Below the pieces are notes generated by a model. The model was not told the origin of the DNA, searched no databases, and worked only from the letters and a program-made list of their open reading frames with translations. This document shows, piece after piece, positions 1-50,766 of a stretch of 64,000 bases of DNA; positions within the stretch are counted from its first letter, which is position 1, and each line of letters starts with the position of its first letter. The translations under genes were made by a program, and so were the position numbers. Source of the DNA: a virus; IMG/VR virus record IMGVR_UViG_3300039412_001263. One strand, written 5' to 3'.

Positions 1-667
1 AGTTAATGACGCAAATGATATTGTTTATGGTTTTTTAACGCCATCTTCAACCACTGGAATTCAGCTAGTTCTTCGAGGAGTTGATTTTCCTAAACAAACT
101 TTGCTTCTTTACCAGTACGTTCACGCTTACGCAGTACGCGACTTCTTAAACCCAGTTGGTAGCATCACCGTAAGCTATGGAGACACAACCAGTATGACGA
201 ACAGCGTAACCATAACAATCACAAACGCATCTGACAGCACAGTAGCTTTTATGCAAGTCTTTTCAGGCGTAGGTTATCAAACGTTTAGTTACACATGGGC
301 TTATGCTGATAACGCTACAAACTACGAAGTAACTGTCGCCATTGACCATTTAACGTTTGGGTCTTTCAGTTATAAACAGTATTTGATAGGGGAATACACT
401 ACGCCAACAGCACCATTTAGCTTAGACTTCCTCGGCACATTATCCATATCAACCGCATGGATGATCCCAGCCTTGCTAATCATCTTTGTTGCTGGGTGCT
501 TCAGCGAATTATCTGCTGAAGTAGGGGGAGTATTAACAACTATTGTAGCCATAATTTTGGCGGCGATGGGTTGGATTCCAATAACAAGCGCAGCCTTGGT
601 TACTGCTTTAGCGTTAAGCATCATGGCTGGCATCGTAACCGCAAGAAGAAGGATGCTTTATTCATGA
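1..667 (+). CDS. 3' part of the 429-aa membrane-anchored surface protein (full copy at 49477..50766)
   Basis: Translation identical to the C-terminal part of 49477..50766; truncated by the window start. Confidence 0.9.
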   Translation, partial: VNDANDIVYGFLTPSSTTGIQLVLRGVDFPKQTLLLYQYVHAYAVRDFLNPVGSITVSYGDTTSMTNSVTITITNASDSTVAFMQVFSGVGYQTFSYTWAYADNATNYEVTVAIDHLTFGSFSYKQYLIGEYTTPTAPFSLDFLGTLSISTAWMIPALLIIFVAGCFSELSAEVGGVLTTIVAIILAAMGWIPITSAALVTALALSIMAGIVTARRRMLYS

Positions 668-708
668 CACAACAAAGGAGAGTGAGTTAGATTCGCGTTC
701 AGTGGGAA

Positions 709-1110
709 TTGTTGCTTGGCTTGTTCATAATTAACTTGAGCGTAGGCGTAGTTATGGGTTTAGCCTTGCCAGGAACAGCTTATGTTGCCGCAGGAACAAG
801 TTTGAATGCTACGCAGTATGAGCAGCAATTCAATAGCACCAAAATCGCTACTAGTTGGGGTGGAACTCCTTTCAGTGGCATACCCGTAATAGGCGACATC
901 TTCGCAGGCTTCAGCTATCTTTACCAGAACCTACAGTACCTCATTGATGGCTTGCCAAAGTTTCTGGATTTCATAAAGACAAGTTACATAACAGATCCGC
1001 AAGGGCAACTTGCGTTTGAAGTAATCGCAGACGCAATAAGAGCAATCTACGCATTCCTAATAACCATATTCTTCATAGAATTCATCAGTGGCCGCTTTTT
1101 CAGCGATTAG
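709..1110 (+). CDS. Small virion-type membrane protein (two hydrophobic segments, NAT/NST sequons)
   Basis: N- and C-terminal hydrophobic helices around a polar loop. The frame is open back to ATT at 691 (IRVQWE), just after a GGAG/GTGAG RBS. Confidence 0.75.
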   Translation: MLLGLFIINLSVGVVMGLALPGTAYVAAGTSLNATQYEQQFNSTKIATSWGGTPFSGIPVIGDIFAGFSYLYQNLQYLIDGLPKFLDFIKTSYITDPQGQLAFEVIADAIRAIYAFLITIFFIEFISGRFFSD

Positions 1111-1211
1111 GAGTTTATAACGGAAGTGTTAAACATGATAGAACTCGAAAAAGAAATGGTAAAAAATTTATACTTAAACAGTGTTAAATATGTAAATGAG
1201 TCAGGGCTTGT

Positions 1212-1424
1212 ATGGAGACACCTGTAAAAATTAGGGGTCCAGTTGCTGACATGCAGGATTTAGTTAATATTGCTAGGATAAAAGGTAAACGTTTGCTCGG
1301 TGTTGACCGTGTTAAAGTCAAGCCTGAAATGTACTCGGACGGCGAAGAGTATATTTTAGTTGTTGAAGCCGATGTTTGTTGCAAAGTTTCCCGTTTAGGA
1401 AACCGTGAAAAGAAAAGCGGTTGA
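1212..1424 (+). CDS. Hypothetical protein (70 aa)
   Basis: ORF tightly packed; its stop overlaps the next start (TTGA). Confidence 0.55.
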   Translation: METPVKIRGPVADMQDLVNIARIKGKRLLGVDRVKVKPEMYSDGEEYILVVEADVCCKVSRLGNREKKSG

Positions 1425-4300
1425 AGTCATTCAAGGCACGAAATTTATTCGGTTCCAAAGCATCAAGCAAAGCTTTTTCTTTGCTTCTTATTCTATTGTT
1501 ATCATTAAGTTCGCTTGCGGTTCTTGTTCCAAAAACATCTCAAGTAGCAAAGGCAACTGGCGTTAGCACTCCCTATTACGGTTGCGATGACATTCTTGTA
1601 GGCTGGCAACAATACAGCACTTACGCTTTATGGAGTACAGCAATGGATAGCTTTTTGACTACGATGAAAGCCGCTGGCGGAAACGTTGTTAGCGTACTTG
1701 TTTATTCTGATGTTAACACGAACTCTTTTTACAGTTACACAAGTGGTTCATACTTTAATTTCGGCTATATGTCCCCTAGCTTTATTTTTTATGCTGGTGC
1801 AAACGGAAAGAATGGGCAGAGCACTACTTTTGCTACAGTATTGGCGGATTTCTCAGCGAAGCTTCATGCGAAAGGGATGTTGCTTGACCTTCAACCTTGC
1901 CCGCCACCATCAGCTACTATGGGAGTTCCATTTCAAACTATGATGTCAACAACTGCCAACCAGAACAATTACATCGCAAACATTTCGCAAATGATTACTG
2001 ACACAAATTGCGATATAGTTAATGCCTACAGTGAACCGTTTGGACCACTAACGTACGGATATGCAAGTACAGGTCTTATGAATAGCTACATAAGTTTCCT
2101 TAACACTGCTGTGCCGATATGGAAAGCGGTTAAATCTGGTTTAACTGTTATGGTTATGGGGTTGCCTAATTGGGATAATGGACCATTCATTACTGCTGGT
2201 GGAATGTCTGGGTTACCTTCAGGCACAATATTATGTTATCACATGTATTACTGGTACACTTATCCTCCTGCAAGTTACTCGTATGAACCATTTGCTGCTG
2301 ATTACTATAATGGAAACTTTGCTCAAGGAAAAGCTGACTGGATAAGTTGGATGGATACTTATGGTCAAGTGAGTTACTGTCTCGCTAATAACATTCCATT
2401 TTGGTTTGAAGCATTAGGATGCAACCAAGTATGTCCGAACGCCATTCAGTTTCTTGCAGATGTAACTGCTTATTGCAACGCGAGGAGTATAGGGTGGTGC
2501 GCATCTGGCAGTCCAAGCGCTCAGTTTACATTCAATAGCCCAACAGTTTTAAACAGTTACGGTATAACGATGTTTTCAAACATTTCAAGTAGTACGCCAT
2601 CCAGTACAACGGACACAATAGGAAGCACATCATCACAACTGACAATGGGATTAGGCACGATGCGAGTATGCGCGATAACTGCAAGCGCATCTGGAATTTT
2701 ATCAACAATAGGAATTAACGTTCAAACAACCTCAAGCGGACACATCGCTTTAGCTATATATACTGCTTATACAGGCGGTGGAACAGGTACTCTTAGCGGA
2801 AAAATAGGTTACACCGCAAACACATCTATTGTTGCAGGTTGGAATGACCTTGCAGTCATAGGAAGCCCTAACATTGTAGCAGCACACACTTACTATATAG
2901 GTTATGAATCGGACGATGGAACAACAGCGAAGTTTTACCTTGCCTATTCAGGCGCAGAATACATTTTTATCGAAACATACAATACGTTTCCAGACCCAAC
3001 AACCGCTTACAACACTGATGGCGCAACATGGAACATGCGGATGACTTATACGCAATATTACAACATCACTGTGTATAGTTCTTATGGAGAACCAACAGAA
3101 AACGAAACCCTCTCCGCAGGCAGCAACTCTACTGTTGGCGTGACGAGCCCTTGGACTGGCACAACAGGAACCCAATATATCTGCACAGGCTACAGCATAG
3201 ATGGCGGTGGTTCTACGGCTGGAACAAGCTACCTCTTCAGCAACATACAAGCGAATCACACGATAACGTTTAATTGGCAAACCCAATACTACCTCACCGT
3301 CACAAGCCCATACGGTTCACCTACGGGAGGGGGATGGTACGCTTCTGGTTCATCTACAACCTTCTATGTTCTACCCAATAACAACATTTATGGTGGCGTA
3401 GGAATCCTATATGTCAATGCATATTGGGCAGGTCAAGGCTCAGGAAGCTACAGTGGCTACTCCACAAGCAACACAATCACCATGAATAACCCCATAAACG
3501 AAACCGCTTCATGGACTACGCAATACTTGCTTACCGCTCACACAGATGCTAACTCAATTATAACTCCCACTACTGAATGGGTAGACTCAGGTTCAACTGT
3601 GACTTTCAATTACACAGCAAACGTTGGGCACTCAATACAATACGTGTTAGTTGATGGCTCAAATGTAACAGTAACAGGAAACTACACATTCACAAACGTT
3701 CAAGCACCACACTCAATCACTATATCAACATTCACTGCTCTTTTCACTATAACGGCCAGTGACGATGCACACTCAATTATTTCGCCTTCCGGAGCCATCG
3801 GCATAACCGCTTTTGGCAGCGACCAAACATTCGTTTTTACTGCATCAAGCGGCTATTACGTAAATCAAGTTTTCGTTGACGGCTCACCAGTCACCCTAGC
3901 ATCCTCTTACACCTTCATCAACATTGCAGCCGACCACACGATAGCCATAACTTCCAGCATCATATCAGCAATGCCATCACCCACAACCCCAGCAACTCTC
4001 CCAACCACCTTAAACGTAGCACCGTTTTGGCAATACCTATTCTCAGGTAATTTCCTAGGATTCTTCCAAGCAATCTACCTAAACGCGTTCGGATTACAAG
4101 ACATCCTATACGGCTCAATATGCATGTTGTTCCTTGTTCCCCTCTATATTGAATCAAAAAGCCTTCTACTATTATCAATAATTTGGATTCTGCTGGGCAG
4201 CAGTTTCTTGGCACTTATGCCAGCCGTGAGCGGGCTCGCAGTCATATTTTTAATTTTAGGGATTTCATCTTTACTCTGGCGTTTGGTACATCCAAATTAG
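1421..4300 (+). CDS. Secreted multidomain protein: GH5/clan-A-like TIM barrel, beta-sandwich, InlB-B-like repeats, C-terminal multi-TM anchor
   Basis: Signal peptide; YSEP (acid/base NEP-like), YHMYY, PFWFEALG (nucleophile-like) and IGW motifs; YYLTVTSPYGSPTGGGWY-type repeats; about 3 C-terminal TM helices; many NxS/T sequons. Confidence 0.75.
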   Translation: MKSFKARNLFGSKASSKAFSLLLILLLSLSSLAVLVPKTSQVAKATGVSTPYYGCDDILVGWQQYSTYALWSTAMDSFLTTMKAAGGNVVSVLVYSDVNTNSFYSYTSGSYFNFGYMSPSFIFYAGANGKNGQSTTFATVLADFSAKLHAKGMLLDLQPCPPPSATMGVPFQTMMSTTANQNNYIANISQMITDTNCDIVNAYSEPFGPLTYGYASTGLMNSYISFLNTAVPIWKAVKSGLTVMVMGLPNWDNGPFITAGGMSGLPSGTILCYHMYYWYTYPPASYSYEPFAADYYNGNFAQGKADWISWMDTYGQVSYCLANNIPFWFEALGCNQVCPNAIQFLADVTAYCNARSIGWCASGSPSAQFTFNSPTVLNSYGITMFSNISSSTPSSTTDTIGSTSSQLTMGLGTMRVCAITASASGILSTIGINVQTTSSGHIALAIYTAYTGGGTGTLSGKIGYTANTSIVAGWNDLAVIGSPNIVAAHTYYIGYESDDGTTAKFYLAYSGAEYIFIETYNTFPDPTTAYNTDGATWNMRMTYTQYYNITVYSSYGEPTENETLSAGSNSTVGVTSPWTGTTGTQYICTGYSIDGGGSTAGTSYLFSNIQANHTITFNWQTQYYLTVTSPYGSPTGGGWYASGSSTTFYVLPNNNIYGGVGILYVNAYWAGQGSGSYSGYSTSNTITMNNPINETASWTTQYLLTAHTDANSIITPTTEWVDSGSTVTFNYTANVGHSIQYVLVDGSNVTVTGNYTFTNVQAPHSITISTFTALFTITASDDAHSIISPSGAIGITAFGSDQTFVFTASSGYYVNQVFVDGSPVTLASSYTFINIAADHTIAITSSIISAMPSPTTPATLPTTLNVAPFWQYLFSGNFLGFFQAIYLNAFGLQDILYGSICMLFLVPLYIESKSLLLLSIIWILLGSSFLALMPAVSGLAVIFLILGISSLLWRLVHPN

Positions 4301-4304
4301 TTTA

Positions 4305-6022: not shown

Positions 6023-6400
6023 ATGTACTCTGTAAGAATAAACTTTTTGTGTGCATACCTGACAACGCTGTTTGCTGACGCTAAAGTTAGAGCTTGGGCA
6101 ATGATACCGAAGAAACTGATCCAGTTCCAAGAGAACCATCGTGCTATTGGTGGCGTGATCTACGTTTTGATTGGCTTAATGATTATGTTGCTCGTAGGCA
6201 TCATAGTTGTTAACGCACTGATTAACTCGCAGACACCGGACTCCACATGGAGTTCCTCAGCTAACACCACTTGGAAGAGCGTTCAAACCAACATTTGGAT
6301 TGCAATGGGCCTAGTCACTGTTGCTCTGATCATAGTTGGCGCGATGGCGATACTGAGCTACCTTAACATGGGTCAAGGTACAGGCAAAGGCGGATTCTAA
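6023..6400 (+). CDS. Putative major capsid protein (helical hairpin, spindle-virus type)
   Basis: Two long hydrophobic helices joined by a polar loop with an NTT sequon; leader ending ENHRA|IGGVI; own promoter and T-rich terminator; C-ending codons suggest high expression. Confidence 0.7.
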   Translation: MYSVRINFLCAYLTTLFADAKVRAWAMIPKKLIQFQENHRAIGGVIYVLIGLMIMLLVGIIVVNALINSQTPDSTWSSSANTTWKSVQTNIWIAMGLVTVALIIVGAMAILSYLNMGQGTGKGGF

Positions 6401-6467: not shown

Positions 6468-7379
6468 ATGATGAAATCTCATAATCGCAAGCGCATAGTT
6501 TTCCCGTTGCTTCTCATTATGGTTTTGTTTGCTGGAACATTCATTCTTCAAGTGAAAGCTGATTCAACACCGCCAACAGCCACTAGTCCAAACACATCTA
6601 CAATGGTTGCGGGAGCATCATGCAAGTTTCAGGTGACGTTACATGATGAAACTGCCTTGGCAAACTACACTTTCGGATGCAACAACACGAATGTATGGGT
6701 GAATGAGACTTGGACAACCATTAGCGGGCTTTCCTATATAGCGAACTCGACTTATGTGCTAGATTCTACAGTTGGAGTTGTTGTTCAGTGGGAATACTGG
6801 TTTTCGGATTCAAGCAACAACACGGCTAACACTGGGGTTCAAACCTTAACAACAACAGTTGGGAGTCTTGACCACATAGTTGTTTCGCCTTCGTCTGCAA
6901 CGATACTGGCTGGAGACCAAGAAACTTATGTTGCCACAGCCTATGATGGCTACAGTCACAGTTTAGGCGTAGTCACAGGTTTAACTTCATGGACTATTAG
7001 CTCTGGAGCGAGAGGTTCATGGAGTGGCGCGACATACACATCATCCAAAGATGGAGCTTGGACTGTTACCGCCACTTACTTAGGTGCTCAGGCATCATCC
7101 ACATTAACTGTTACTCCAACGGTTACGCAACAGCACACAAACGCCGTTTTTACCAACGTGTACATAGCGCTTGGGCTTGTTGGTATTAGCTTGATTGCGC
7201 TGGCTTGCTTCCTCATTATGGGGTCTTTAAAGTCTGGAGATGCGAGTGCAGGAGCTTTTTTGGTCGGCATTATTATGTTGATAAGTACCGTTGTTGGGTT
7301 GGTTGTGGCGTTTATGGTAGCTATTGGCTTTCAAAACTCCATGGATACCAGTCTAGTTTTGTTGCGCATATTGTTATAG
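6468..7379 (+). CDS. Secreted Ig-like domain protein with MCP-like C-terminal membrane hairpin (putative minor virion protein)
   Basis: Signal peptide; DET.L..Y.FGCN domain; Big_2-like LDHIVVSPSSATILAG; C-terminal helix aligns with MCP helix 2. Confidence 0.7.
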   Translation: MMKSHNRKRIVFPLLLIMVLFAGTFILQVKADSTPPTATSPNTSTMVAGASCKFQVTLHDETALANYTFGCNNTNVWVNETWTTISGLSYIANSTYVLDSTVGVVVQWEYWFSDSSNNTANTGVQTLTTTVGSLDHIVVSPSSATILAGDQETYVATAYDGYSHSLGVVTGLTSWTISSGARGSWSGATYTSSKDGAWTVTATYLGAQASSTLTVTPTVTQQHTNAVFTNVYIALGLVGISLIALACFLIMGSLKSGDASAGAFLVGIIMLISTVVGLVVAFMVAIGFQNSMDTSLVLLRILL

Positions 7380-7463: not shown

Positions 7464-7754
7464 ATGGTACTCTCGGACACTATTAGTTACGTTACGCTTT
7501 TCGGTTTAACCATGATTTTTACCAGCTTTGCTCTTACGATTAAGGATAAGCTTTGGACTGTAGCACTCAAATTCATTGCTGGCTTGTTCTGGATTATTAT
7601 GGCAGTTGCCCAGTTCTATTTTATGGGTTCATCGGGGTTTCTTTTGATTTTGAGTTTGCCCTACGCGATTTTCGGGTTGATTTTTTGGATTGCGATTTAT
7701 AATGATTTTCTCGGCGACAAAAAAGATAGGATTTGGAAATTTGAAGACATCTAA
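7464..7754 (+). CDS. Three-TM small membrane protein
   Basis: Three hydrophobic segments. Confidence 0.7.
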   Translation: MVLSDTISYVTLFGLTMIFTSFALTIKDKLWTVALKFIAGLFWIIMAVAQFYFMGSSGFLLILSLPYAIFGLIFWIAIYNDFLGDKKDRIWKFEDI

Positions 7755-9464: not shown

Positions 9465-12400
9465 ATGAAACGTAAATTTGCACGCAATTTAAAGACCATT
9501 GCGGTCATTTTATTATTAATTAGTGTAATATTCATCGGTTTGTATGCTCCGCTTGTTTATGCGGCATCTATTTTCAGTGAAAATTTTGAAAGTGGAAACC
9601 TAAGTAGCTGGACAGTAGCTGGCAGTGGAGTTTATACTGAAGCCGTAACAACCACGACTGTTTATGCTGGAACATATGCTTGCAACGGAACAAGGTCAGC
9701 ATCGGGGTCTTATGCGGAAATCTACCATAATCTTGCAAGTTCTTACTCTACCCTTTATGCCCAAAGCTATTGTAGATTTACAGCGTTGCCAACAAATAAT
9801 CAAGTTATTCAATTTGGAGCTGCATCGATAGGCGATTTGAGTGACAATAATGACCTTATAGCTGTAAAAATAATGAATGTTAGTGGAACGCAAGAGTGGG
9901 GATTAAAATATTATAATTTAGGAACCACTTATAATGCAACAGCTCCATCCCCAGCAGCAAACACATGGTATAATATTGAAGTAGAATATCATGCTAGTTC
10001 CACGGTTGGATTTGCAACATTATGGATTAATAACGCATTGACTCTTAACGTAACTGGACTAAATATGCCAACGGCAGCTCAAAGCGTTTGGTGTGCAGTA
10101 ACTTCCAATTCAACCGCTACTGTGACCCTAAGCGCCTTCAGTGACAATGTTTATGTTTCTGCCTCTTACATTGACGTTACTAACCCAACTTATTCCAGCA
10201 TAACTACAAGCAACACTGTTAGGGGTCAATCCTGCATTTTCGGGGTTACTTGGATAGATGAAACGGGATTAAGCAAATACATGTTTGGTTGTAACGTGTC
10301 GGGTTCATGGGTTAACTCTACTAGCTGGATAGCTTTCACTTCTAACCCTCAAACAATAACTAACACAACCACGCTTAGCTCGGCAGTTGGAGGCGAAGAC
10401 CAATATGAATGGTGGGCAAATGACACAAGTGGCAACTTTAATAATACTGGAGTACAAACTTTAACGACAACGTTGCTTGCGTCAACCCTTGTTTTATCAG
10501 TTTCAGCATCTTTCGGGGCTACCGAGTATCTAAAGACTAGTTATGCTAAGGTGTTTTCTGCTTCAGCAACCTTCGCGGCGACAGAGTACATGCAAACCAG
10601 TTATACTATGCCTCTTACTGCCTCAGCAAAGTTTAACGCAACTCAGCAAAGCCCCATCACATATAACTTGGCGAGTTCTGTTAACGCAAAATACAATGCT
10701 ACTGATATTGAGAAAGGCACTTACAGCATTCCGCTTTCCAGTTCAAGCAAATTCACCTTAACTAGCGTGTTCTCATCAATTTATAACTTGGTAAGTTTCG
10801 CTTCTAGCCATTTCAGTTTAACCGATGTGTTCTCGGTAGCTTACAAACTGTTGCTTTCTGCATCAAGAACTTTCAGCTTAACGCTTCTGCCAAGCATAAT
10901 CTTACACCTTTTGTTTTCTATCTCAAAAAGTTTCAGTTTAATTTCCTCTTTGACTAGTGCTTTTCATGTGTTGTCAACTGCAAACTTTAATGTTGCCCTT
11001 AACTTTTTGCCAAGCAGTCTCTATTACATTTTATCCAGTGTTATGAGTAGCTTCGGCTTGATAAATGGTTTGAAGAGTGGTTTTAACGTGTTGTCTTCAG
11101 TGTTGGGTAGTTTTAGCCTTAGCTTTCTACGAAGTGCAGTCTTTAACATTTTAACTTCTGCTTCTTCAAGTTTCAGATTAGTCCTATGGCTTGGTTCAGC
11201 CTTCAAGGTTCTCTCAAGCATCGGGGGCACTTTCACTTTATCAACTCTGCTAACCTCAACCTTTAACTTGCTATATGGGTTAAGTGGAAAGTTCGCTCTC
11301 ACTCTTTTACCAAACACGATTTTCAATATTCTATCGGGCTTAAGTAGCCAATTTAGCCTAGTAGTTTACTTGAGTTCAATCTACACTATCTTAGCCAATT
11401 TAGCTAGCGCATTCACATTGAACCTTTTACCAAGTATAATCTTTAATATGCTTTCAAGTTTAGGTAGCCAGTTTAGCCTTGCACTTCATTTAACCTCTAT
11501 CTTTAACATCTTATCGAATTTAGGCGACATATTCACTTTGAATCTTTTAAAGTCAATGGTCTTTAATGTACTCAGTACCTTGTCTTCAACCTTTAATCTT
11601 ACACTTTACTTAACTACAATTTATAACGTGCTATCAACGGTTGCCTTCAACCTGAATGTTACCGCGTACATCGCAGGTGCCTTTAATGTGCTGGTTTCTG
11701 TAGCAAACAGTTTCGGCTTAACTCTTTGGGTTGGTTCAGCTTTCAAAATCCTTTCAAGCTTAACTGGCATCTTCACCTTAACAACTCTAATTTCATCAGT
11801 CTTCAACGTACTGTCTGGGTTAATGGGACACTTCAACTTAACAACTTCACTAAGCACAATCTACACTGTGCTTTCCAGCTTATCAAGCCAATTTAATTTA
11901 ACGCCTTACCTGACCGCATTTTATAATCTATTGTTCAACACCGGCTTCACCGCTTCACTGATACTTCAAGCTCAATCAATCTTTAATGCCCTATTCAACT
12001 TATCAGGAAAATTTGCTTTAACCTTTTTACCGAATGCCCTCTTCCACATACTTTCAGGATTATCAAGCAACTTCAATCTTGTAGCCAGCTTTAGCTCAAT
12101 CTACATGGTTCTTTCTAGCTTGTCAAAAAGTTTTAGCTTGAGCTTTTTGTCGTCAGCGATATTTAATGTGCTCAGTGGGCTTTCTGGACGGTTCAACCTT
12201 GTTCCTTCATTGAGTGCAATTTTCAATGTTATCTCAAGTGTCAGTAGCCAGTTTAATCTCGTTAGCTATTTCAGTTTCATCTACACGGTTCTGTCTGTTC
12301 TTACTGGAAGTTTCAGCTTGAACATTTTTACATCAACAGCTTTCCATATTCTATCCAGTTTATCTTCAACCTTCAACCTCATGCCTTATCTTTCCACAGT

Positions 12401-14596: not shown

Positions 14597-14923
14597 TGAA
14601 TATGTGCGCGCAGTTTTGGCATTTGTAACGTTGCTTTAACCCTTCTCTAGTCATTATTGTTCCGTACTTCACGATTTTTTCACTGGAGCATTTAGGACAT
14701 TGCATACATCAATCAATCAACCAACTAATATAAAAGCCTTATTGTCACCCTTACAACTTTTCTTTTGTGCAAGTGAATAACAGTTTACTTTTTACACCAA
14801 CTTTACCGTACTATCCTTTCATGCTTTACATTACTCAATTTATGTACAAAATGCAGTTCACCGCTTCAATATGGCAAACGCTATATCTCTGCGGTACGCT
14901 AATTCGCCTCTGGGGAAATCGCC

Positions 14924-23898: not shown

Positions 23899-23914
23899 AG
23901 CAAAAAGTTAAAGA

Positions 23915-25261: not shown

Positions 25262-25312
25262 CTGCTCGATATAGCGATCATAACCTTAAAGCCGAAAGAA
25301 AAAATTAAAACG

Positions 25313-25891: not shown

Positions 25892-25892
25892 A

Positions 25893-27777: not shown

Positions 27778-27780
27778 AAA

Positions 27781-38150: not shown

Positions 38151-38542
38151 TAGAGTTTACCTTCGGGTCTAGTTTCTTTTGGTTTTGCGGTAAAATCTTT
38201 GTTTATCCAACCTTTGTCATAGAGGCTCTTTGTAACAGCTCTAATTAAATCCCTCAGTACCTTTGGTGTCTCTATGTTGATTTGTCGATGTTTTTGTTGA
38301 AGCGCAGATGCATAATGGAAAGAAGAAATAGGTTTCGCGAATACTTGAGAAACTTTATCATATTCTTCTTTGGTGTCTTCTTGGCAGTCTGGGGGAATCA
38401 CAGTTTGAATAGATAATGCTGTGTCCCATGCCGCGGAGTAATTGCCGAATGTCATTTGCTCAAAAAATTGGTTATATAGGTTTGCCCAGATACCTTGCCA
38501 TATTCCGCTTGGGTTTTGGTCGTTACTTCGGCGTTCAGTCAT
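38150..38542 (-). CDS. Hypothetical protein coupled to the ATPase
   Basis: Stop/start overlap with the ATPase at 38150. Confidence 0.7.
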   Translation of the reverse strand: MTERRSNDQNPSGIWQGIWANLYNQFFEQMTFGNYSAAWDTALSIQTVIPPDCQEDTKEEYDKVSQVFAKPISSFHYASALQQKHRQINIETPKVLRDLIRAVTKSLYDKGWINKDFTAKPKETRPEGKL

Positions 38543-38674
38543 AAATTAGTCCTATTAGTTTAATTATGTTGTATTATTTTTAAGTTTATTGGTATTTTCC
38601 CAAAAAGATGTTACAAATTAGGAAAATTATATAAGCATTAACATGTAATTAAATTAATTATTAGAGGTTTAAAA

Positions 38675-39142
38675 GTGGTTAATCCGTTAGGTTGGCTACG
38701 CAAAAAAGACGATAAAGCTTTTGACTTCAGTGCTGCCGCAGCGCATCAAGACATGGCGAACCCAAATACTTCTAGCCCAGAGCAAGATTATGTTGCTATG
38801 ATAGGCAAAATCGGTTACTTGCTGAATAGTCCAACTATGGAGCAGTTCTTTATGGAGCATCCGCATCTACGCATGTTTGTGCCAGCGTTTCAGTCTGTGA
38901 ATCGAACAACTAAGCTAAGTAACCATGAAGCTGAAATAATGTACTATGATTTCCAGATTCTTTTCACTATGGCTAAGTTAACGATGGAGCCGAGCATTTA
39001 TGAGCAGGGTGCTATGGGAATTTTTCAAGGCTTAGAAATCCTTGCGGAAACACAGATTACGGATGGAAAAGACGGTTGGAAAGGCCACTTGATAACTGAG
39101 CAAGTAAGACGGTTAGAAGTGGATTTGAACAAGAAAAAGTAA
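38675..39142 (+). CDS. Hypothetical protein
   Basis: First gene of an operon divergent from the ATPase. Confidence 0.7.
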   Translation: MVNPLGWLRKKDDKAFDFSAAAAHQDMANPNTSSPEQDYVAMIGKIGYLLNSPTMEQFFMEHPHLRMFVPAFQSVNRTTKLSNHEAEIMYYDFQILFTMAKLTMEPSIYEQGAMGIFQGLEILAETQITDGKDGWKGHLITEQVRRLEVDLNKKK

Positions 39143-39156
39143 GAGGTTGATTAAGG

Positions 39157-39876
39157 TTGGCTCTTGAAGAATTAAACACGTTTCTAGGTTTACCCGCATT
39201 TATGTGGTTCTTTATTGCCATAGCAGTAGGAATCGCTTTTGTAATTGTGATTACGGTCCATGAGTTTTTCATTATGACTTCTTTCGCTAAACATGCTAGG
39301 GCAATGAAGTGGTCCAAGGGGTTGGCAGCGTTGATTCAAGATAATAATGTGGTTCGGCTACTTTTTAGCAATGGAGAACTGCCGGAAGGATTGTTTTTGA
39401 TTAGGGGTAAATGGTTTTTGCGTCCTCAAACTCCTTACCTTGGCAACACTACTTCTCAGCGTGGACCTGGAAGGCCAAGTAATGAAGAAAAGGCTCAAAC
39501 TCAAGATGGCAAAGCTATAGATGTTTTAAGTAAAGATAGCCGTGAAGCGTTAACTGAGGTTTTGCAGTGTCCTATTTTGGAAGGTGTTGGTAAGCCCTTG
39601 TTTGTTGGGTGTGTCAATCAACCTATGCTTACGAATATTTCTACTGTGGCCCATGCTGACTTGACTCGGATAAGAGAGATTATTCCAGAGACTTTAACGC
39701 AGACTCAACTTGATGCTTTGCATACTTATAGCAAGATTAAGGGGATTAAGATGGCTGGTAAGGAGCAGATGAAAATTATTTACTTGGCGATTGCAGCGGT
39801 TATGGTGATTGGCAGTTTGGGGCTGATTGTTTACTTGTTAACTCAGCACTCAAGTTTCCTGTTGGCGCTAATCTAA
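39157..39876 (+). CDS. Membrane protein with N- and C-terminal TM helices
   Basis: Hydrophobic ends; C-terminus LLTQHSSFLLALI. Confidence 0.75.
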   Translation: MALEELNTFLGLPAFMWFFIAIAVGIAFVIVITVHEFFIMTSFAKHARAMKWSKGLAALIQDNNVVRLLFSNGELPEGLFLIRGKWFLRPQTPYLGNTTSQRGPGRPSNEEKAQTQDGKAIDVLSKDSREALTEVLQCPILEGVGKPLFVGCVNQPMLTNISTVAHADLTRIREIIPETLTQTQLDALHTYSKIKGIKMAGKEQMKIIYLAIAAVMVIGSLGLIVYLLTQHSSFLLALI

Positions 39877-44296: not shown

Positions 44297-44617
44297 TTAT
44301 ATTAGCGGGTATGGATTGGATGATTGACGTTGCCTCTTTTTTCTACCTCTCCGCTCGATTCTCTCGCGTCGCCGTCTTACTTGACTTACTCGCCTGCTTT
44401 CGCGGGACCTAGTTTGCTGTGGCATTCTAAAAGGCATCATATCAGACGGGGCATCAGTCATAACATTATGTACGACATTAACGCCAACTTGGTTCATGTA
44501 ACTGCCCACTTTTTTGGCTTTCACATATAACTCTTTCCTCTTCTTTTGCGGATTTCTCACCCACTCATTCCGATACCGGATGAAGCGGTTAGCAATTTTG
44601 TTTCCTATAGAACTCAT
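44297..44617 (-). CDS. Arg-rich basic protein
   Basis: RRRRERIERRGRKKRQRQ. Confidence 0.65.
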   Translation of the reverse strand: MSSIGNKIANRFIRYRNEWVRNPQKKRKELYVKAKKVGSYMNQVGVNVVHNVMTDAPSDMMPFRMPQQTRSRESRRVSQVRRRRERIERRGRKKRQRQSSNPYPLI

Positions 44618-44952
44618 AACTCAACCTCCTTTTCCTTTTTGGTTCTGCGTTTGCCTTTTCTTTTACGTTGCCTCTTAGGCGTATCCCATGTGAAAAGCGC
44701 GTTAGGCTTAACGTTTCCGCTTTGCGCCACAAGGTCTTTTCCAATGTTGGCGAATGCGCCCATGAGCTTCTGGTAAAACGGTTTACGGTTAGCTATTTTC
44801 TGTGCGTCTTGTTTACCTCTTAAAGCCGCGATTCTTTCTCGCTCTTTCTCTTTAGAGGCATTATAGACTTTTTGGCGCTTGTAATAGTCTTTGTCTAAAT
44901 CTTCCTTCTGCTTTTTTCTTCTGCGAGCGTTAGGATCCCAAATCCAAGCCAT
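44614..44952 (-). CDS. Lys/Arg-rich basic protein
   Basis: RRRKKQK...KRQRKRKGKRRTKK. Confidence 0.65.
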   Translation of the reverse strand: MAWIWDPNARRRKKQKEDLDKDYYKRQKVYNASKEKERERIAALRGKQDAQKIANRKPFYQKLMGAFANIGKDLVAQSGNVKPNALFTWDTPKRQRKRKGKRRTKKEKEVEL

Positions 44953-44953
44953 T

Positions 44954-45169
44954 TTAAAACACCTTTTCGGCTTCGTGTTTGCCGTATGTGATTCTTTTTG
45001 CTCCAGCCTCTAAGCTAGTGAAGTCTTTCTTGGCTGTTTGAATTGCACTTGAACCCTTACCTTTTGGGTGGCGTGTGCTTTTCTTTTTTACGGCATGGTC
45101 ATGGGCTATGCGTTTAGCTTGCATCTTGGTTGCCCAAGGATGCTCAGATTTCTCTTTTCTCCAACTCAT
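44954..45169 (-). CDS. Basic microprotein with E.EH...A..IA.DH motif
   Basis: KEKSEHPWATKMQAKRIAHDH, reminiscent of DUF5661-type viral proteins (from memory, unverified). Confidence 0.6.
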   Translation of the reverse strand: MSWRKEKSEHPWATKMQAKRIAHDHAVKKKSTRHPKGKGSSAIQTAKKDFTSLEAGAKRITYGKHEAEKVF

Positions 45170-45174
45170 AACTT

Positions 45175-45321
45175 TTATCTCCGTTTTCGCTTTTTTGTTT
45201 TCCTTTTAGTTTGCTTAGTAGAGTGAATACCAACATAACTAAAGCCCATATCAGTTATTTTATAATGGGTTGGTCCATGATAATTTTTTGGTTTTTTACC
45301 TTCAATTTCAAAGATACTCAT
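45175..45321 (-). CDS. Basic microprotein (48 aa)
   Basis: Translated by hand: MSIFEIEGKKPKNYHG...KQTKRKTKKRKRR. Confidence 0.55.
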   Translation of the reverse strand: MSIFEIEGKKPKNYHGPTHYKITDMGFSYVGIHSTKQTKRKTKKRKRR

Positions 45322-45333
45322 TTGTGTTGCACC

Positions 45334-45546
45334 TTATCTCCTTTTTTGCGCATTAATCGCAAACAAGGCCCGTCTTTTCATTGTTGTGGTTACGGTTTTT
45401 CCATGCACCTTGCTGCCGACCTTAGCTTTAACAATCTTATGCAACGTAGCTTTAGGAATCTTCTTATCCAGCGAGATTCCGAGTTGCTTGTGTAATGCTC
45501 CTTTTTTGCGTGGGTTACTTGCTTTTTGAATCCATTTACTAACCAT
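45334..45546 (-). CDS. Basic microprotein, KWIQKA...GALH.QLG...KIP type
   Basis: Motif I recall from uncharacterised viral proteins; strongly Lys-rich. Confidence 0.65.
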   Translation of the reverse strand: MVSKWIQKASNPRKKGALHKQLGISLDKKIPKATLHKIVKAKVGSKVHGKTVTTTMKRRALFAINAQKRR

Positions 45547-45547
45547 T

Positions 45548-45754
45548 TTAAATTATTCTCCCATAAGCATTTCTCTGTTTCTTCCTTTTTTGAAATTCAA
45601 TATTTGCTCTTGTTAGGTGCTGTAATGGCGTTTCGTTTTTGTAGCGAGGCATCGAATTGAAAGTTTTGGCTCTAACTTTTGCGTTGACCTTCTCTAACTC
45701 TTTGTCAATAAAGTGTACGCCATCACTCCAATCTTCTGTGTCTCGTTTTGGCAT
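45548..45754 (-). CDS. Basic hypothetical protein
   Basis: First gene of the basic-protein operon. Confidence 0.55.
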   Translation of the reverse strand: MPKRDTEDWSDGVHFIDKELEKVNAKVRAKTFNSMPRYKNETPLQHLTRANIEFQKRKKQRNAYGRII

Positions 45755-45810: not shown

Positions 45811-45825
45811 TATAACTGTGGAAGA

Positions 45826-45948
45826 ATGAAACAAAAGAAACAACGCGGAAGACCTTTAGGCGGTAATTCTCCAGCAATCATTAGAGAATACTGGCGAATA
45901 GCACAGCAAGCTAGCCGACAAACAAGAAAGGAGAAAAAACGTAAATGA
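45826..45948 (+). CDS. Basic microprotein with RGRP (AT-hook-like) motif (40 aa)
   Basis: Translated by hand: MKQKKQRGRPLGGNSPAIIREYWR...; ATGA overlap with the next gene. Confidence 0.5.
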   Translation: MKQKKQRGRPLGGNSPAIIREYWRIAQQASRQTRKEKKRK

Positions 45949-48698
45949 GCACGGTTGCTCAGATTCAAGCGCAGAACGCTGTTTTTCAGCAAGCCTTAAC
46001 TTCTGGCACGATTACGCAAGATCAATATAACAGTGCTATGGCTATACAGAACGCGAACATGGCTAAAGCTCAAGCAGCACCGCCAGTAGCGCAATCTCCA
46101 TATTCGGCAGGGGTAGGTAGAAGCCCAACAACTCCTTTGGGGAATCCAGCGGTTACTCCTGAAGTTAGCGTTACACCAGCACCAACAACGCCAACTCCTG
46201 CACCAAAAACATCTAGCCTTCTTGGTACAATATCAAGTGCCATAAGCAATGCAGGTCAAGCAATTGGCAACGCTGGAAACACAATCTACAATGACATATC
46301 AAATATAGGTGGCAAACCTTTCGCATCGAATTTAAGCATTGTTAATCCAGTAGGAGAAAAATCAACTACATACACAAAGCAAGTTATAGTTCCATTAACA
46401 CTAGAGCAGATTCAAGAAAGAGACAAGGAAATAGCGGATGTCACTTCTTACCCATCTTCTAATGAAGAAGCTTTAGCGTTAGGTGCGCCTGCGTATATTC
46501 CGCTTCAAGATAAAATTAATTACATAAAACAAATAAATTCTGCTTACCCAGCAGGTGGCTTAAGTGCCACTCTTTTTACCCGTGTAACGACACCCACAAA
46601 GAATCCTTTGTCAGCGTTTAACAATCCTCCTTCAACCAAGGCTTTAGTTGCTGAAGCTGGAGGAATCGCCATTACTGCGGCAGTTGCACCTGAAATTGTT
46701 ATTCCGAGCATAGCGATTGGGGAAGGTGCAAACATAGGAATTCAATCTGCAACTAAGTCTTTTGCGACTGGACAAGCAAGTTTAGTTTTGCCTGCTTCAC
46801 CTAAAGAAGTTCTTGATGTCGCTGCATATAGCGCAGCATTTGGTATTATTGGTGCTGGAGCTTTGGGCGCTATCGGCGAGGTTGCACCTCAATTAGCTGG
46901 TGACGTTGCTAACCCGATTGTTCGTGCTGCAACACGGATAAGTCTTAATGCTGGGTTAGGCGCAGGTGGCAACGCCATATTAAGTCTTGGTAATTCTCAA
47001 GCGATAATTCAAGGTGCAGAGTTCGGCGCAGCATTTGGCGCGGCAGGAGAAGTTGTTGGAGCTGTAGGTGGAAAGATTAGGGCAACAGATACGGGTCAAA
47101 GAGTAATTGGCACCATACGCGACAATATTATTGGTGTAAAGTTTGAGGAGTTAACAAGCGTCAAAGAACTTTCAGCACAAAACACTTTCGGAAAAGAAAC
47201 CATTATCGGTCAACTTACAGAACCTGACATTGAAACGGTAACTTTACGGGGCAAAGATGTTTCCTATTACAAAGAATATAATCTTAAGACACTTCAGAAT
47301 CCAGTTGTTGATTTAGCAGGAACCGAAAAAGTCTATCAGCCTAACATGGAGATAGGCGGCAAAGAACTTGAACCAATCCCAATTCTAAGACAAGTTGAAT
47401 CAATCCGTAAAGGGGATCCACTTCTTGCGGCACTTGAGCGAAATGGCAATTATAAGTTAGCTATAGCAAAAACTGGAAACGTAAATGACTTCTTAGAGAC
47501 TCCTTCAGATATGCCCGCGATTCAACGGACTAAAGTAACTATTGACTTAACGAAAGGTCAACCTCCAGCCGTATATGCTGAGAAGACAATTGTTACATCG
47601 GAAGAAGCTATTTTGCCTGAAACCAAGATTAGCTTTAGAGATTTTACTGGAGTAAAAATCAGAGGCATTCCTGATGAGGTAAACGTTGCGGATATTGCTA
47701 AGTCTCTTCCTGAGGATTTAGCGCAAAATATCTATAAACAGTTAGGTGGAAATTACAGACCCATCGTTGATTATGGAAGTCAAGCGCCTAAAGATTTGTC
47801 AGGAGCTATGCAGACTGGTTCAAACAAGTTTTTCAAAAATGCCGCAGAAGATACTTCTTTAAATGTTAATGCACCGGATGTAACTAAACTTATTCAGGCT
47901 ACAACAGAGCCTAAAGAGGTTGCTTTGCCACGTGCTATAATTGGTGAAGCTAAATTGACTGCTCCAAAATTTAAAATCTCTGGCTTCCTAACACCGCATA
48001 TATTTTCAACACAAGCCGACGAAGAAGAAACATCATTTTTGGTTTATCCAAATTCTGGATTAGCTTCTCCTAAAATAATTGCTTCTTCTATAACTCAAAC
48101 AAGGAATATTCTGGGTGTCACGCAAAGACAAGGACAAGAGCAATCATTGATTCCAACTTTCAATCAAAGGCAATCTCAGATAAGGATTCCTACAATAACA
48201 CCTATAACGAAACCTGTAACTATAGCAAAAACAATGCCTAGTTTAATTCCTGTTCAAATTCCTAAAATAACCCCTTTCCAAATTCCGAGAACAACACCGA
48301 TAACTATAGCGAAAACAACTCCTATTCTAATTCCTAAATTAACTCCTACTCTAGTTCCCCGACAAATACCGAGAACAGTACCAACCTCTGTATTTCCAAA
48401 GTTTCCAAATGTTTCTAAGCAGACTTTTCCAAAGATGCCTGCCTTTGGTTTAGGTGGTGGTTTTGATAATCTTGGTCCAAAAAATATGTTTGGCGGTAAA
48501 TGGTATCTCAAGAAGCACAAGATTAAGACTTACAGTCAAATGCTTAAAACCTTCGGTGTCGGAGGCATGGGGAAGCCTATGCGGAACATTGAGAAGAATG
48601 CGAACAAAATGATTAAAGCTTTCAAGCCTAAACAAGCAACTAAACAGAGAAGGAAGCAAGCAACCAAGAGCAGGAGGCAAACAAGAAGACGGCGCTAA
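45945..48698 (+). CDS. Large low-complexity protein, candidate internal/ejection (tape-measure-like) protein
   Basis: No signal peptide; Gln/Pro-rich N-terminus; Gly/Ala-rich hydrophobic core; IP..IP.T repeats; very basic C-terminal tail. Confidence 0.6.
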   Translation: MSTVAQIQAQNAVFQQALTSGTITQDQYNSAMAIQNANMAKAQAAPPVAQSPYSAGVGRSPTTPLGNPAVTPEVSVTPAPTTPTPAPKTSSLLGTISSAISNAGQAIGNAGNTIYNDISNIGGKPFASNLSIVNPVGEKSTTYTKQVIVPLTLEQIQERDKEIADVTSYPSSNEEALALGAPAYIPLQDKINYIKQINSAYPAGGLSATLFTRVTTPTKNPLSAFNNPPSTKALVAEAGGIAITAAVAPEIVIPSIAIGEGANIGIQSATKSFATGQASLVLPASPKEVLDVAAYSAAFGIIGAGALGAIGEVAPQLAGDVANPIVRAATRISLNAGLGAGGNAILSLGNSQAIIQGAEFGAAFGAAGEVVGAVGGKIRATDTGQRVIGTIRDNIIGVKFEELTSVKELSAQNTFGKETIIGQLTEPDIETVTLRGKDVSYYKEYNLKTLQNPVVDLAGTEKVYQPNMEIGGKELEPIPILRQVESIRKGDPLLAALERNGNYKLAIAKTGNVNDFLETPSDMPAIQRTKVTIDLTKGQPPAVYAEKTIVTSEEAILPETKISFRDFTGVKIRGIPDEVNVADIAKSLPEDLAQNIYKQLGGNYRPIVDYGSQAPKDLSGAMQTGSNKFFKNAAEDTSLNVNAPDVTKLIQATTEPKEVALPRAIIGEAKLTAPKFKISGFLTPHIFSTQADEEETSFLVYPNSGLASPKIIASSITQTRNILGVTQRQGQEQSLIPTFNQRQSQIRIPTITPITKPVTIAKTMPSLIPVQIPKITPFQIPRTTPITIAKTTPILIPKLTPTLVPRQIPRTVPTSVFPKFPNVSKQTFPKMPAFGLGGGFDNLGPKNMFGGKWYLKKHKIKTYSQMLKTFGVGGMGKPMRNIEKNANKMIKAFKPKQATKQRRKQATKSRRQTRRRR

Positions 48699-48730
48699 AA
48701 CGTTTCCGCAGAAACCAGCAAGGCTTACTC

Positions 48731-48982
48731 ATGTATTTCGTAGTGGTAATTATGGCGCTTGTCATAGTTGGAGCCATGTGGTTTTTCTATGCAACCGCTG
48801 TGCAGGCAGTGCAAGAAAGTTTCAATAATCAACTTTCAAGTGACAAGTTTGCAACGGCTGGAAACTGGAATAGCTTTAATTTAGCTAACGATTTCATAAA
48901 TAACCTCTGGAAGTTCTTATTAGCGTTTTTGGTTCTCGGACTAGCCTATTACGGGTACAATGAAGCGCAACGGAGAACCTAA
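48731..48982 (+). CDS. Hydrophobic hairpin protein (minor capsid/pilin-like)
   Basis: Two TM helices; the in-frame upstream codons read KRFRRNQQG|LL, a class III-like leader. Confidence 0.65.
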   Translation: MYFVVVIMALVIVGAMWFFYATAVQAVQESFNNQLSSDKFATAGNWNSFNLANDFINNLWKFLLAFLVLGLAYYGYNEAQRRT

Positions 48983-48984
48983 AC

Positions 48985-49251
48985 ATGCGCGTCTTGGTTA
49001 AGTCTAAAAAAGTAATGGGCGACTACATTGCGCTTCATGGACTCATGCCTAAGAATGAATTGCCAAAGAAGCTAAGAGGGAAGATTCCTGCAAACGAAGT
49101 GTGGGTACGAAGCGACAAATACGATACACCAGCGAAGAAGCTAAAGCTCCGTACCCATGAAGGAGTAGAAACTAACTTAATGAAACGAGGATTATCCTAT
49201 AAAAATGCGCATAAGATTGCAAACAGGTTTGAATGGCAGGTGACTGGTTAA
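48985..49251 (+). CDS. Basic protein with HExxE...AH motif
   Basis: THEGVETNLMKRGLSYKNAHKIA. Confidence 0.6.
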   Translation: MRVLVKSKKVMGDYIALHGLMPKNELPKKLRGKIPANEVWVRSDKYDTPAKKLKLRTHEGVETNLMKRGLSYKNAHKIANRFEWQVTG

Positions 49252-49508
49252 CGCGAGTCTTGTTCGTTTGGTTCACCGCTATCGTGTGCCTCTTCATAAT
49301 CACTGTTGGCTGGTACATCTGCAACGGCGTAGTCTTAACAATCGCTTATCAAGCTATGGGAGATTTAACTGGGCAAGCATTTAGCCTGTTAACGCTTGTC
49401 GAGTTTGTTGCAACTTGGTGGGGACCCATATTTGACGTAATCGTTATTTTGTGGGCCATAATTAACAGTCAGGAGCTTGATCCAAATAGCCAAATACTTG
49501 GGTACTAA
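49233..49508 (+). CDS. Two-TM hairpin membrane protein (minor virion protein candidate)
   Basis: Two hydrophobic helices within the structural operon. Confidence 0.7.
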   Translation: MAGDWLTRVLFVWFTAIVCLFIITVGWYICNGVVLTIAYQAMGDLTGQAFSLLTLVEFVATWWGPIFDVIVILWAIINSQELDPNSQILGY

Positions 49509-50766
49509 AAAAATATTCAGTGTTATGGCAATAGTTTTACTAGCTACTTTGTTAGTTGTATCTTTTGCTTCTATCCCAAAAGTTAAAGCAACAGGATTCA
49601 ACTACCATTTTTATGGACCAATTGACGAAAACACAGGCGTAGCATTGAAATATAAAAATGGAAGCCCAGCTTATGTTAATGTAACTGTGCATTACCTAAA
49701 TTCGCCACCAGATACTTTCAGTACCAATGGCAACGGAGGAGCTGGTTACTCCTTTAACACCACTACTGTTCCTATTTATTTCGCCTACGACATAACAGAC
49801 AACACAACAGGGCTTTCAATTACAAGCCATAGGGAATACTGGCTAAAATCAGACTTTACTGAAACTTCAGGCACATACATTCTTTGGGGTGCCACTTCGG
49901 GATTAACAACTTACACAATTGCCTTTTTAGATTATGTAGGGCAATTGAAAAGTTACCCAATTATAAAAGCCCAGATTGAAGATACAACTTATACGGTTAT
50001 GAATTACACAACCGTTGATGACCGACCTGTTGATGCTCAAAACACCGTAATCATGAATTTGCAAGAAGGCCACCGTTACCGTATTGTTTTAAGCGATGGA
50101 GTTAATGACGCAAATGATATTGTTTATGGTTTTTTAACGCCATCTTCAACCACTGGAATTCAGCTAGTTCTTCGAGGAGTTGATTTTCCTAAACAAACTT
50201 TGCTTCTTTACCAGTACGTTCACGCTTACGCAGTACGCGACTTCTTAAACCCAGTTGGTAGCATCACCGTAAGCTATGGAGACACAACCAGTATGACGAA
50301 CAGCGTAACCATAACAATCACAAACGCATCTGACAGCACAGTAGCTTTTATGCAAGTCTTTTCAGGCGTAGGTTATCAAACGTTTAGTTACACATGGGCT
50401 TATGCTGATAACGCTACAAACTACGAAGTAACTGTCGCCATTGACCATTTAACGTTTGGGTCTTTCAGTTATAAACAGTATTTGATAGGGGAATACACTA
50501 CGCCAACAGCACCATTTAGCTTAGACTTCCTCGGCACATTATCCATATCAACCGCATGGATGATCCCAGCCTTGCTAATCATCTTTGTTGCTGGGTGCTT
50601 CAGCGAATTATCTGCTGAAGTAGGGGGAGTATTAACAACTATTGTAGCCATAATTTTGGCGGCGATGGGTTGGATTCCAATAACAAGCGCAGCCTTGGTT
50701 ACTGCTTTAGCGTTAAGCATCATGGCTGGCATCGTAACCGCAAGAAGAAGGATGCTTTATTCATGA
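49477..50766 (+). CDS. Secreted beta-rich surface protein with C-terminal triple-TM anchor (virion tail/adsorption candidate)
   Basis: Signal peptide; many NxS/T sequons; 3 C-terminal hydrophobic helices ending in RRR; spans the circle junction. Confidence 0.8.
   Translation: MIQIAKYLGTKKIFSVMAIVLLATLLVVSFASIPKVKATGFNYHFYGPIDENTGVALKYKNGSPAYVNVTVHYLNSPPDTFSTNGNGGAGYSFNTTTVPIYFAYDITDNTTGLSITSHREYWLKSDFTETSGTYILWGATSGLTTYTIAFLDYVGQLKSYPIIKAQIEDTTYTVMNYTTVDDRPVDAQNTVIMNLQEGHRYRIVLSDGVNDANDIVYGFLTPSSTTGIQLVLRGVDFPKQTLLLYQYVHAYAVRDFLNPVGSITVSYGDTTSMTNSVTITITNASDSTVAFMQVFSGVGYQTFSYTWAYADNATNYEVTVAIDHLTFGSFSYKQYLIGEYTTPTAPFSLDFLGTLSISTAWMIPALLIIFVAGCFSELSAEVGGVLTTIVAIILAAMGWIPITSAALVTALALSIMAGIVTARRRMLYS

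Follow-up and report, generated by a model that had tools for sequence, protein, structure and literature searches.

A complete 50.1-kb circular genome from peat and wetland metagenomes, probably of a spindle-type virus of Bathyarchaeia

The circle, its ATPase, and its hairpin protein

The IMG/VR virus record IMGVR_UViG_3300039412_001263 was analyzed as a window of 64,000 nt (the whole stretch of DNA, one strand), and it contains a circular element of 50,099 bp. With reasonable confidence, we read this element as the complete genome of a probably temperate, uncultivated double-stranded DNA (dsDNA) virus of Bathyarchaeia, representing a new family-level lineage of spindle-shaped (lemon-shaped) archaeal viruses. 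An earlier interpretation of the window, made from the letters and a list of open reading frames (ORFs) without database searches and referred to here as the sequence-only reading, had proposed a complete circular genome of a spindle-shaped or enveloped archaeal virus. Three features stand at the center of the argument:

1..50099, no strand: one full turn of the circular element (exact repeat, and contigs of ~50.1 kb spanning the junction)
37104..38150, minus strand: AAA+ ATPase of 348 aa with a C-terminal winged-helix region (phrog_5484, E 1.5e-10)
6023..6400, plus strand: candidate major capsid protein, likely start 6101 (M27) (85 homologs, a hairpin in the AlphaFold2 (AF2) model, sub-significant VP1 matches)

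Positions 1-13,901 of the window recur as 50,100-64,000 with 0 mismatches, which gives a unit of 50,099 bp with 38.9% GC. Because an exact repeat could be a wrapping artefact of a record declared circular, closure was sought independently. A single Logan contig in each of three sequencing runs (X12 and X14, both 50,111 bp; X18, 50,168 bp) covers positions 36,000-55,999 with 0 differences and spans the 50,099/50,100 junction, at depths of 12-80x, and in a fourth run the same interval is covered by two overlapping contigs. These runs might contain the source sample; their contigs were separately assembled and are cut elsewhere than the window. The element is also recurrent: for a 10-kb stretch of it, 100% of the sampled words are present in at least 24 wetland or peat metagenome runs from 2017-2018. 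The tRNA and Rfam scans found no tRNA and no Rfam family in the circle, and no housekeeping genes lie on its 50,099 bp, the chromosomal extension that the sequence-only reading had set against itself being absent. That this is a complete circular mobile element, as that reading had held and for which it had suggested checking the junction, is borne out by the exact repeat and by the contigs from the other runs, and we state it with little reservation.

The assignment of the ATPase to the family of SSV1 B251 and His1 ORF16 appears robust at the level of sequence. Its match to phrog_5484 aligns residues 42-246 with profile positions 14-226 of 239, Walker A and Walker B included, and the same PHROG contains both SSV1 B251 (5e-101) and His1 ORF16 (3e-62). 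A profile of 16 homologs, which are 45-81% identical, aligns with B251 in hhalign at a probability of 95.9% (E 5.9e-9), whereas the ATPase profile finds only RFC in PDB, at an E value of 0.23. Because the alignment with B251 runs past Walker A into a "DW..VL..ivFNL" segment and PDB gives only that weak hit, the link is specific and not one of generic P-loops; direct comparison with the profile of His1 ORF16 is weak. The profile check against spindle-virus ATPases that had been suggested for this gene thus came out in favor of the sequence-only reading.

The hairpin protein is the most conserved gene product of the lineage, its 85 homologs sharing 56-87% identity compared with the 45-81% of the ATPase. 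Most of the homologs are 90-100 aa long and begin near M27 of the ORF, which makes 6101 the likely start. In an alignment of 20 homologs, a leader of variable length ends in [KR][GA] and is followed by an invariant Gly, a nearly invariant Gly, and a hydrophobic helix; the loop then carries the invariant NSQTPD.TWS..AN.TW..VQTNIW, holding an N-x-T sequon, and a second hydrophobic helix follows. The AF2 model is a helical hairpin (helices 30-69 and 78-117, pLDDT 78), and the protein has the two hydrophobic helices, the short loop, and the length of ~70-100 aa expected of a spindle capsid protein, with these segments conserved in the 20 homologs. Fusellovirus VP1 also has a leader of variable length, which measures 144 aa in SSV1 and 88 aa in SSV2; a K[GA] closes it, with an E as the next residue, and hhalign superposes the K[GA] site of the hairpin protein on the KG/E of SSV1 VP1.

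Searches of three resources lead to similar neighbors, none of them at a significant score. The best of 177,635 PDB sequences is SSV19 VP1 (7xdi_A, E 0.14), the best of 38,880 PHROGs is phrog_11172, the SSV1 VP1 family (E 0.058), and the nearest Pfam-carrying clusters of the ESM Atlas are VP1-like (VP1_VP3, PF06281; 0.87) and His1 capsid (PF25665; 0.85), the nearest unnamed clusters (0.93) being labelled viral. For comparison, His1 VP21, an experimentally established spindle capsid protein, matches phrog_11172 at an E value of 0.029, no better than the hairpin protein does. The convergence of PDB, PHROGs, and the Atlas is good but not conclusive support for a spindle-type coat protein. The JGI labels of some homologs (MnhB, Fe3+ permease, YidH) are automatic and follow the hydrophobic segments; no cellular family exceeds the threshold in Pfam, so that the match to a cellular membrane-protein family that the sequence-only reading would have counted against itself is absent.

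Elsewhere in the window, a 105-aa multi-pass membrane protein (35371-35688, plus strand) carries an HExxH motif and a Peptidase_M50B-like match (E 2.2e-5). As a putative membrane metalloprotease of minimal size, it could remove the leader of the coat protein.

Structural arm, enzymatic arm, and recombinases

The structural arm extends from ~38.6 kb clockwise via the wrap point to 13.1 kb. Its products are, with few exceptions, either small proteins that span the membrane several times or large ones that begin with a signal or anchor and end in transmembrane helices. The genes of the arm and those next to the ATPase are:

38150..39876, both strands: three ATPase neighbors of 130 aa (minus), 155 aa (plus), and 239 aa (plus), the last with N- and C-terminal transmembrane helices (conserved in four relatives)
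44297..45754, minus strand: five very basic small proteins, candidates for DNA condensation (judged from the translations)
45945..48698, plus strand: 917-aa conserved protein, first gene of the structural arm (conserved in three relatives)
48731..49508, plus strand: three small genes of 83, 88, and 91 aa, two of them for two-helix membrane proteins conserved in relatives
49477..50766, plus strand: 429-aa surface protein, crossing the wrap point (AF2 pLDDT 84)
709..1110, plus strand: 133-aa protein with N- and C-terminal transmembrane helices (57% identity in two relatives)
1421..4300, plus strand: 959-aa secreted, C-terminally anchored protein, itself a variable cargo of the arm (transmembrane and signal pattern)
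6468..7379, plus strand: Ig-like secreted protein next to the capsid gene (weak Big_3 match, transmembrane segments)
7464..7754, plus strand: 96-aa multi-pass membrane protein beside the capsid gene (67% identity in one relative, present in two more)
9465..13136, plus strand: 1223-aa secreted, anchored repeat protein (signal and transmembrane pattern; repeats D1 and D2)

Relatives were compared at 53 JGI loci reached via the ATPase and five GTDB loci reached via the capsid profile. Their common order is the 917-aa protein, the 83-aa, 91-aa, 429-aa, and 133-aa proteins, the capsid candidate, and the 96-aa protein; giant adhesin-like genes and HNH genes are variable inserts. The 917-aa protein has seven metagenome homologs, no family match in Pfam, PHROGs, or NCBIfam, and an Atlas search at chance level, and it is the only large soluble protein without a family assignment. 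The 429-aa protein is modelled with a signal or anchor helix, three Ig/FN3-like beta-sandwiches, and three C-terminal transmembrane helices; because its fold matches only generic FN3/Ig arrays, the protein does not conceal a capsid fold. The family comprises 312 clusters at 50% identity (relatives P0127-P0276), and the 385-aa module of Ig-like domains plus anchor is almost always the C-terminus of proteins of 400-1,499 aa with variable N-terminal heads, a pattern that fits a conserved anchor carrying varied outer domains. Of the 959-aa protein, the C-terminus alone is conserved, in two relatives, and the C-terminal anchor of the Ig-like protein beside the capsid gene resembles capsid helix 2 (BLASTP of capsid residues 59-99 against 225-264, E 0.004).

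The other arm, at 21.8-31.6 kb, has a different content, assigned with Pfam: two GT2 glycosyltransferases, two radical-SAM proteins, one of them B12-binding, two methyltransferases, and a ParB-N protein. Further assignments on the circle are two HNH-like proteins and regulators. The features outside the structural arm are:

13148..14596, minus strand: GDSL lipase/esterase with a long Pro/Thr linker and a membrane anchor (Lipase_GDSL_2, E 1.7e-19)
14825..14893, no strand: candidate attachment site with a 12-bp core at 14843-14854 (suggested by the ends of long Logan contigs)
14924..16099, plus strand: 391-aa XerA-like tyrosine recombinase (NF040815, E 3.2e-11, below the curated cut-off; weak Phage_integrase)
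21816..29558, plus strand: enzymatic arm with the glycosyltransferases, radical-SAM proteins, and methyltransferases (Pfam)
29717..30412, plus strand: protein with a ParB N-terminal domain (ParB_N, E 2.5e-17)
36300..36950, minus strand: 216-aa tyrosine recombinase (Phage_integrase, E 2.5e-13)

By profile match, both recombinases appear to contain a tyrosine recombinase domain (Phage_integrase or XerA). The content thus agrees with the description given in the sequence-only reading, in which a hairpin protein, membrane and secreted proteins, a P-loop ATPase, and recombinases had been listed. Its observation that HK97, portal, terminase, and double jelly-roll (DJR) genes are lacking also holds: in the larger ORFs, searches of Pfam, PHROGs, and NCBIfam detect none of them, nor any conjugation or plasmid-replication family. 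In the upstream regions, TATA-like boxes precede the first genes of operons and Shine-Dalgarno-like GGAG motifs occur within operons, which is consistent with an archaeal host.

The long Logan contigs offer a hint of how the circle may integrate. In all four runs, they end at 14,843-14,854 (14,825-14,893 in X18), and their lengths equal the genome plus 12 bp (X12 and X14) or 69 bp (X18), the excess being terminal overlap; the repeat search of the window found no internal repeat at 14,843-14,854. In a de Bruijn graph, such ends arise when a second junction, for example with host DNA, shares a short core with the circular one. Because the contigs share these ends without an internal repeat, the site lies 70 bp upstream of the XerA-like integrase gene, and a contig of 423 kb is recorded as encoding exactly the same ATPase and capsid proteins, we propose the 12-bp core as a possible attP. 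When the circle was matched against the Bathyarchaeota metagenome-assembled genome (MAG) described below in search of a tRNA-type attachment site, the matches at 20,081-20,215 proved to be small Zn-ribbon genes and not tRNAs. Contigs of 436-525 bp in four runs carry the stretches 36195-36216 and 39265-39285 only 5 nt apart, at one third to half of the depth of the element; a spacer or a joint was considered and rejected, as the stretches are T-rich and 21-22 nt long and their pairing is probably low-complexity chance.

Host group and comparison with known viruses

Bathyarchaeia are uncultivated and among the most abundant archaea of anoxic sediments and peat. Their viruses are almost unknown, and the circle provides a complete, clonal 50-kb genome that recurs unchanged in peat and wetland metagenomes. 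The attribution to this host group comes mainly from loci of the capsid family. An NCBI annotation places one capsid homolog in a MAG of Candidatus Bathyarchaeia, and a scan of the whole GTDB with the capsid pattern gave five loci, four of which are in Bathyarchaeia MAGs: three on short contigs of one MAG and one at ~142 kb of a 463,547-bp Bathyarchaeota MAG contig. The fifth, on a short contig binned as Ignavibacteria, is probably mis-binned.

The locus at ~142 kb, L057, has a chromosomal setting: at its positions 5210-14621, an element of ~9 kb lies in the 463,547-bp contig (C3, CAWAKC010000003.1) of the Bathyarchaeota MAG G001. It contains an integrase, a D5-type primase-helicase, a capsid homolog (65% identity), directly followed by a 433-aa protein homologous to that of 429 aa (46%), as well as small ORFs and a fragment of an integrase gene. 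Host genes for TtuA and TBP flank it, and close by, beyond its limits, there is a fragment (339 aa) of a family B polymerase. This is a small integrated relative in a chromosome. At the DNA level, the GT2 gene of the circle (27818-28433) shares 68% identity with positions 288163-288780 of contig C1 in the same MAG, along 616 nt, a similarity that suggests fairly recent exchange with the host group. Two Cys-rich mini-ORFs of ~40 aa, absent from the ORF list, lie at 20100-20228 and 20232-20352 on the plus strand, and the first of them, a Zn-ribbon, shows up to 87% DNA identity over 46 nt to several copies scattered over G001. Finally, the 429-aa family occurs in 5 of 301 sampled genomes of the class to which G001 belongs. 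Because of the capsid-family loci, the chromosomal relative, the DNA-level similarity, and these five genomes, we find a link to Bathyarchaeia well supported at the family level and consider them the likely host group.

Scans of IMG/VR with the ATPase and with the capsid profile found no relative. In the GenBank phage and archaeal-virus records, tblastn gave no match to the capsid candidate, the 429-aa protein, or the ATPase, and in PLSDB none to the ATPase; a GTDB scan with the ATPase profile gave no match either. The virus had been called probably undescribed in the sequence-only reading, and the first three of these collections agree; because none of them contains a relative, we regard the element as a lineage that is new at the family level but of a kind already known. 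The particulars of the lineage are a pilin-like leader motif on a coat-type protein, modular anchored adhesins, and a large arm for glycan modification. Spindle viruses are classified in Fuselloviridae, Halspiviridae, Thaspiviridae, Nipumfusiviridae, Eurekaviridae, and Huangdiviridae. Large spindle viruses of ANME-1 reach 72.6 kb, with a structural and an enzymatic arm (PMC9894754). Given those genomes and their two arms, neither the size nor the layout of the 50-kb circle, which the sequence-only reading had placed at the large end of the group, is exceptional.

Fuselloviridae (SSV1, SSV19) share with the element a circular dsDNA genome, a B251-type ATPase of the same PHROG, a tyrosine integrase, virus-encoded glycosyltransferases, and a small, hydrophobic, two-helix protein of coat type whose loop has a glycosylation sequon and whose leader, which terminates in K[GA], is cleavable, the cleavage being presumed in the present case. 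Unlike them, the circle is three times larger and carries large anchored adhesins and a radical-SAM/methyltransferase arm; no homology to the other fusellovirus core genes is detectable, the similarity of the capsid candidate falls short of significance, there is no match to Pfam VP2, and the hosts are Sulfolobales there but probably mesophilic Bathyarchaeia here. His1 of Halspiviridae has the same-PHROG ATPase with a C-terminal helix-turn-helix region and a similar gene order near it, small membrane proteins being followed by proteins with a signal and a C-terminal anchor, but its genome is linear, 14.5 kb in size, and encodes a protein-primed polymerase, and direct profile comparisons are weak.

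Two further groups are close in host or in habitat. Huangdiviridae, with Bathyarchaeia baizomonadales Huangdivirus 1, is the only classified spindle-type virus of Bathyarchaeia and consists of a single provirus from a hydrothermal vent (PMC10541130, PMC12451623). It resembles the element in encoding an ATPase and a glycosyltransferase along with hairpin proteins, which are VP1/VP3-like there (PMC10541130, PMC12451623), but differs, by its description, in an ATV-like ATPase and a clear VP2 homolog; the ATPase and capsid scans of the whole GTDB gave no locus titled QMYA (the host record is QMYA01000001), the presence of that record in the collection being unchecked. The ANME-1 viruses "Itzamnaviridae" and "Tepeuviridae" resemble the element in their large genomes, two arms, and metagenomic origin in anoxic sediments (PMC9894754), whereas they encode family B polymerases and thyX. 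The GenBank searches with the three proteins named above gave no match to them, the presence of ANME-1 records there being likewise unchecked.

Interpretation and rival explanations

The reading that we favor, that of a spindle-shaped virus, is supported by the conserved, syntenic structural arm together with the lack of conjugation, terminase, portal, HK97, and DJR genes in the family searches and by a division into two arms like that of the large ANME-1 spindle viruses (PMC9894754), and a virus with a spindle-type coat protein is, on balance, the likelier nature of the element. A working of such a virus can be proposed, in which the virion shape, leader cleavage, glycosylation, integration site, and individual protein roles are what we infer from the gene content. 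The two-helix hydrophobic protein of ~85 aa would be made with a leader of variable length, which a membrane peptidase would cut after [KR][GA]; N-glycosylated at the invariant loop sequon, the protein would then build the capsid lattice. The Ig-like and adhesin-like proteins may be seated in the capsid layer by their hydrophobic C-terminal helices and help the virus to recognize its host. Genome replication or loading could be the task of the winged-helix AAA+ ATPase of B251/ORF16 type, and the small basic proteins may condense the DNA; the XerA-like integrase would insert the genome at the site just upstream of its own gene, and the arm of glycosyltransferases, radical-SAM proteins, and methyltransferases may modify glycans of the virion or of the host surface. 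An extended form of this reading, a widespread, so far unrecognized peat and wetland family of large temperate Bathyarchaeia spindle-type viruses with a pilin-like, class III-type leader cut, made by a membrane peptidase of host or virus, and with a lattice bearing modular adhesins that copy the anchor helix of the coat protein, is possible but tentative.

Several results weigh against a spindle-type virus of this host group. In hhalign, the hairpin protein matches VP1 at a probability of 20-22% (E about 1e-3) and VP3 and His1 VP21 at about 3-5%, and alignments of six or 12 fusellovirus VP1/VP3 sequences brought no gain over a single sequence. Pfam VP1_VP3 and His1_capsid give no match at E <= 1, the best Pfam family being Phage_holin_3_6, a sub-threshold hairpin family; Foldseek of the model against PDB and BFVD returns generic helical matches only, the hairpin fold being non-discriminating. 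Among the basic proteins, the one of 70 aa (45334-45546) has only an N-terminal KW[IV]QKA motif in common with SSV1 VP2 and does not match Fusello_VP2_Capsid (PF25632) at E <= 1, a family that SSV1 VP2 itself, as a positive control, matches at 1e-40. As to the host of this particular genome, the B251-type ATPase is not in G001. All of the sequence evidence, moreover, comes from bulk metagenomes.

Capsid homology and virion shape are therefore tentative, the profile-profile match to VP1 having a probability of about 20%. The spindle-type virus of the sequence-only reading is upheld in the robust ATPase link and in the three convergent capsid pointers but not in its capsid homology or shape; the profile check that it suggested for 6023..6400 found the VP1 and His1 capsid proteins as the nearest named neighbors, though none of them significantly. 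Its Bathyarchaeia host, proposed from protein style and start-codon usage, has gained a better basis in the MAG loci and stands at the family level, being tentative for this particular genome.

The same uncertainties leave some room for other explanations. One is that the element is a plasmid or an integrative element that forms no virions and whose surface adhesins, glycan enzymes, and partition and recombination functions serve the host. The ParB-like protein, the two recombinases, and glycan enzymes that are host-like at the DNA level would suit such an element, as would a free circle at 12-80x in bulk metagenomes and the absence of a statistically secure capsid gene. The searches for conjugation and plasmid-replication families and that of PLSDB came back empty, however, and the B251/ORF16 ATPase, the highly conserved hairpin protein, and the module of small membrane proteins are characteristic of spindle viruses, and we consider a virion-less element unlikely.

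A second explanation retains the virus but not the spindle: the virion would be pleomorphic and enveloped, like that of pleolipoviruses, or bounded by a membrane in some other way, with the hairpin protein in the envelope, the 429-aa protein as a spike, and no spindle lattice. In L057, the hairpin gene is directly followed by the anchored 433-aa protein, much like a pair of membrane protein and spike, and membrane proteins are numerous while capsid homology to VP1 is unproven. Yet all three resources give spindle capsid proteins as the nearest named neighbors of the hairpin protein, the ATPase family is common to SSV1 and His1, the model of the 429-aa protein shows a simple array of Ig/FN3 domains and matches nothing fusogen-like, and 50 kb is far above the genome range of pleolipoviruses; a pleomorphic virion is accordingly improbable. 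A third explanation, a virus with a tail or an icosahedral shell, would require that its HK97 or jelly-roll capsid, its portal, and its terminase have diverged beyond detection; such genes could hide among the unassigned 917-aa, 237-aa (8591-9304), and 256-aa (30857-31627) proteins. This is very improbable, since terminase and portal are normally detectable yet found by none of the three family collections. Among the ORFs of >300 aa, moreover, the unassigned ones are, save that of 917 aa, all secreted or membrane-anchored, and the others are the ATPase, recombinases, or enzymes with an assignment; the 429-aa protein is Ig-like, and the sole ATPase is of B251 type.

The genome, the surface family of 312 clusters, and the chromosomal relative together give a handle on virus-host dynamics in methane-relevant soils, and the conserved [KR][GA] leader bears on the unsolved enzyme that matures the capsid proteins of spindle viruses. 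A minor observation concerns the AT-rich gap before the enzymatic arm: an inverted repeat of 30 nt at 21308-21422, 90% complementary and with arms 55 nt apart, has a related 25-nt copy at 38536-38560, beside the start of the ATPase operon, and may represent an origin or a shared operator.

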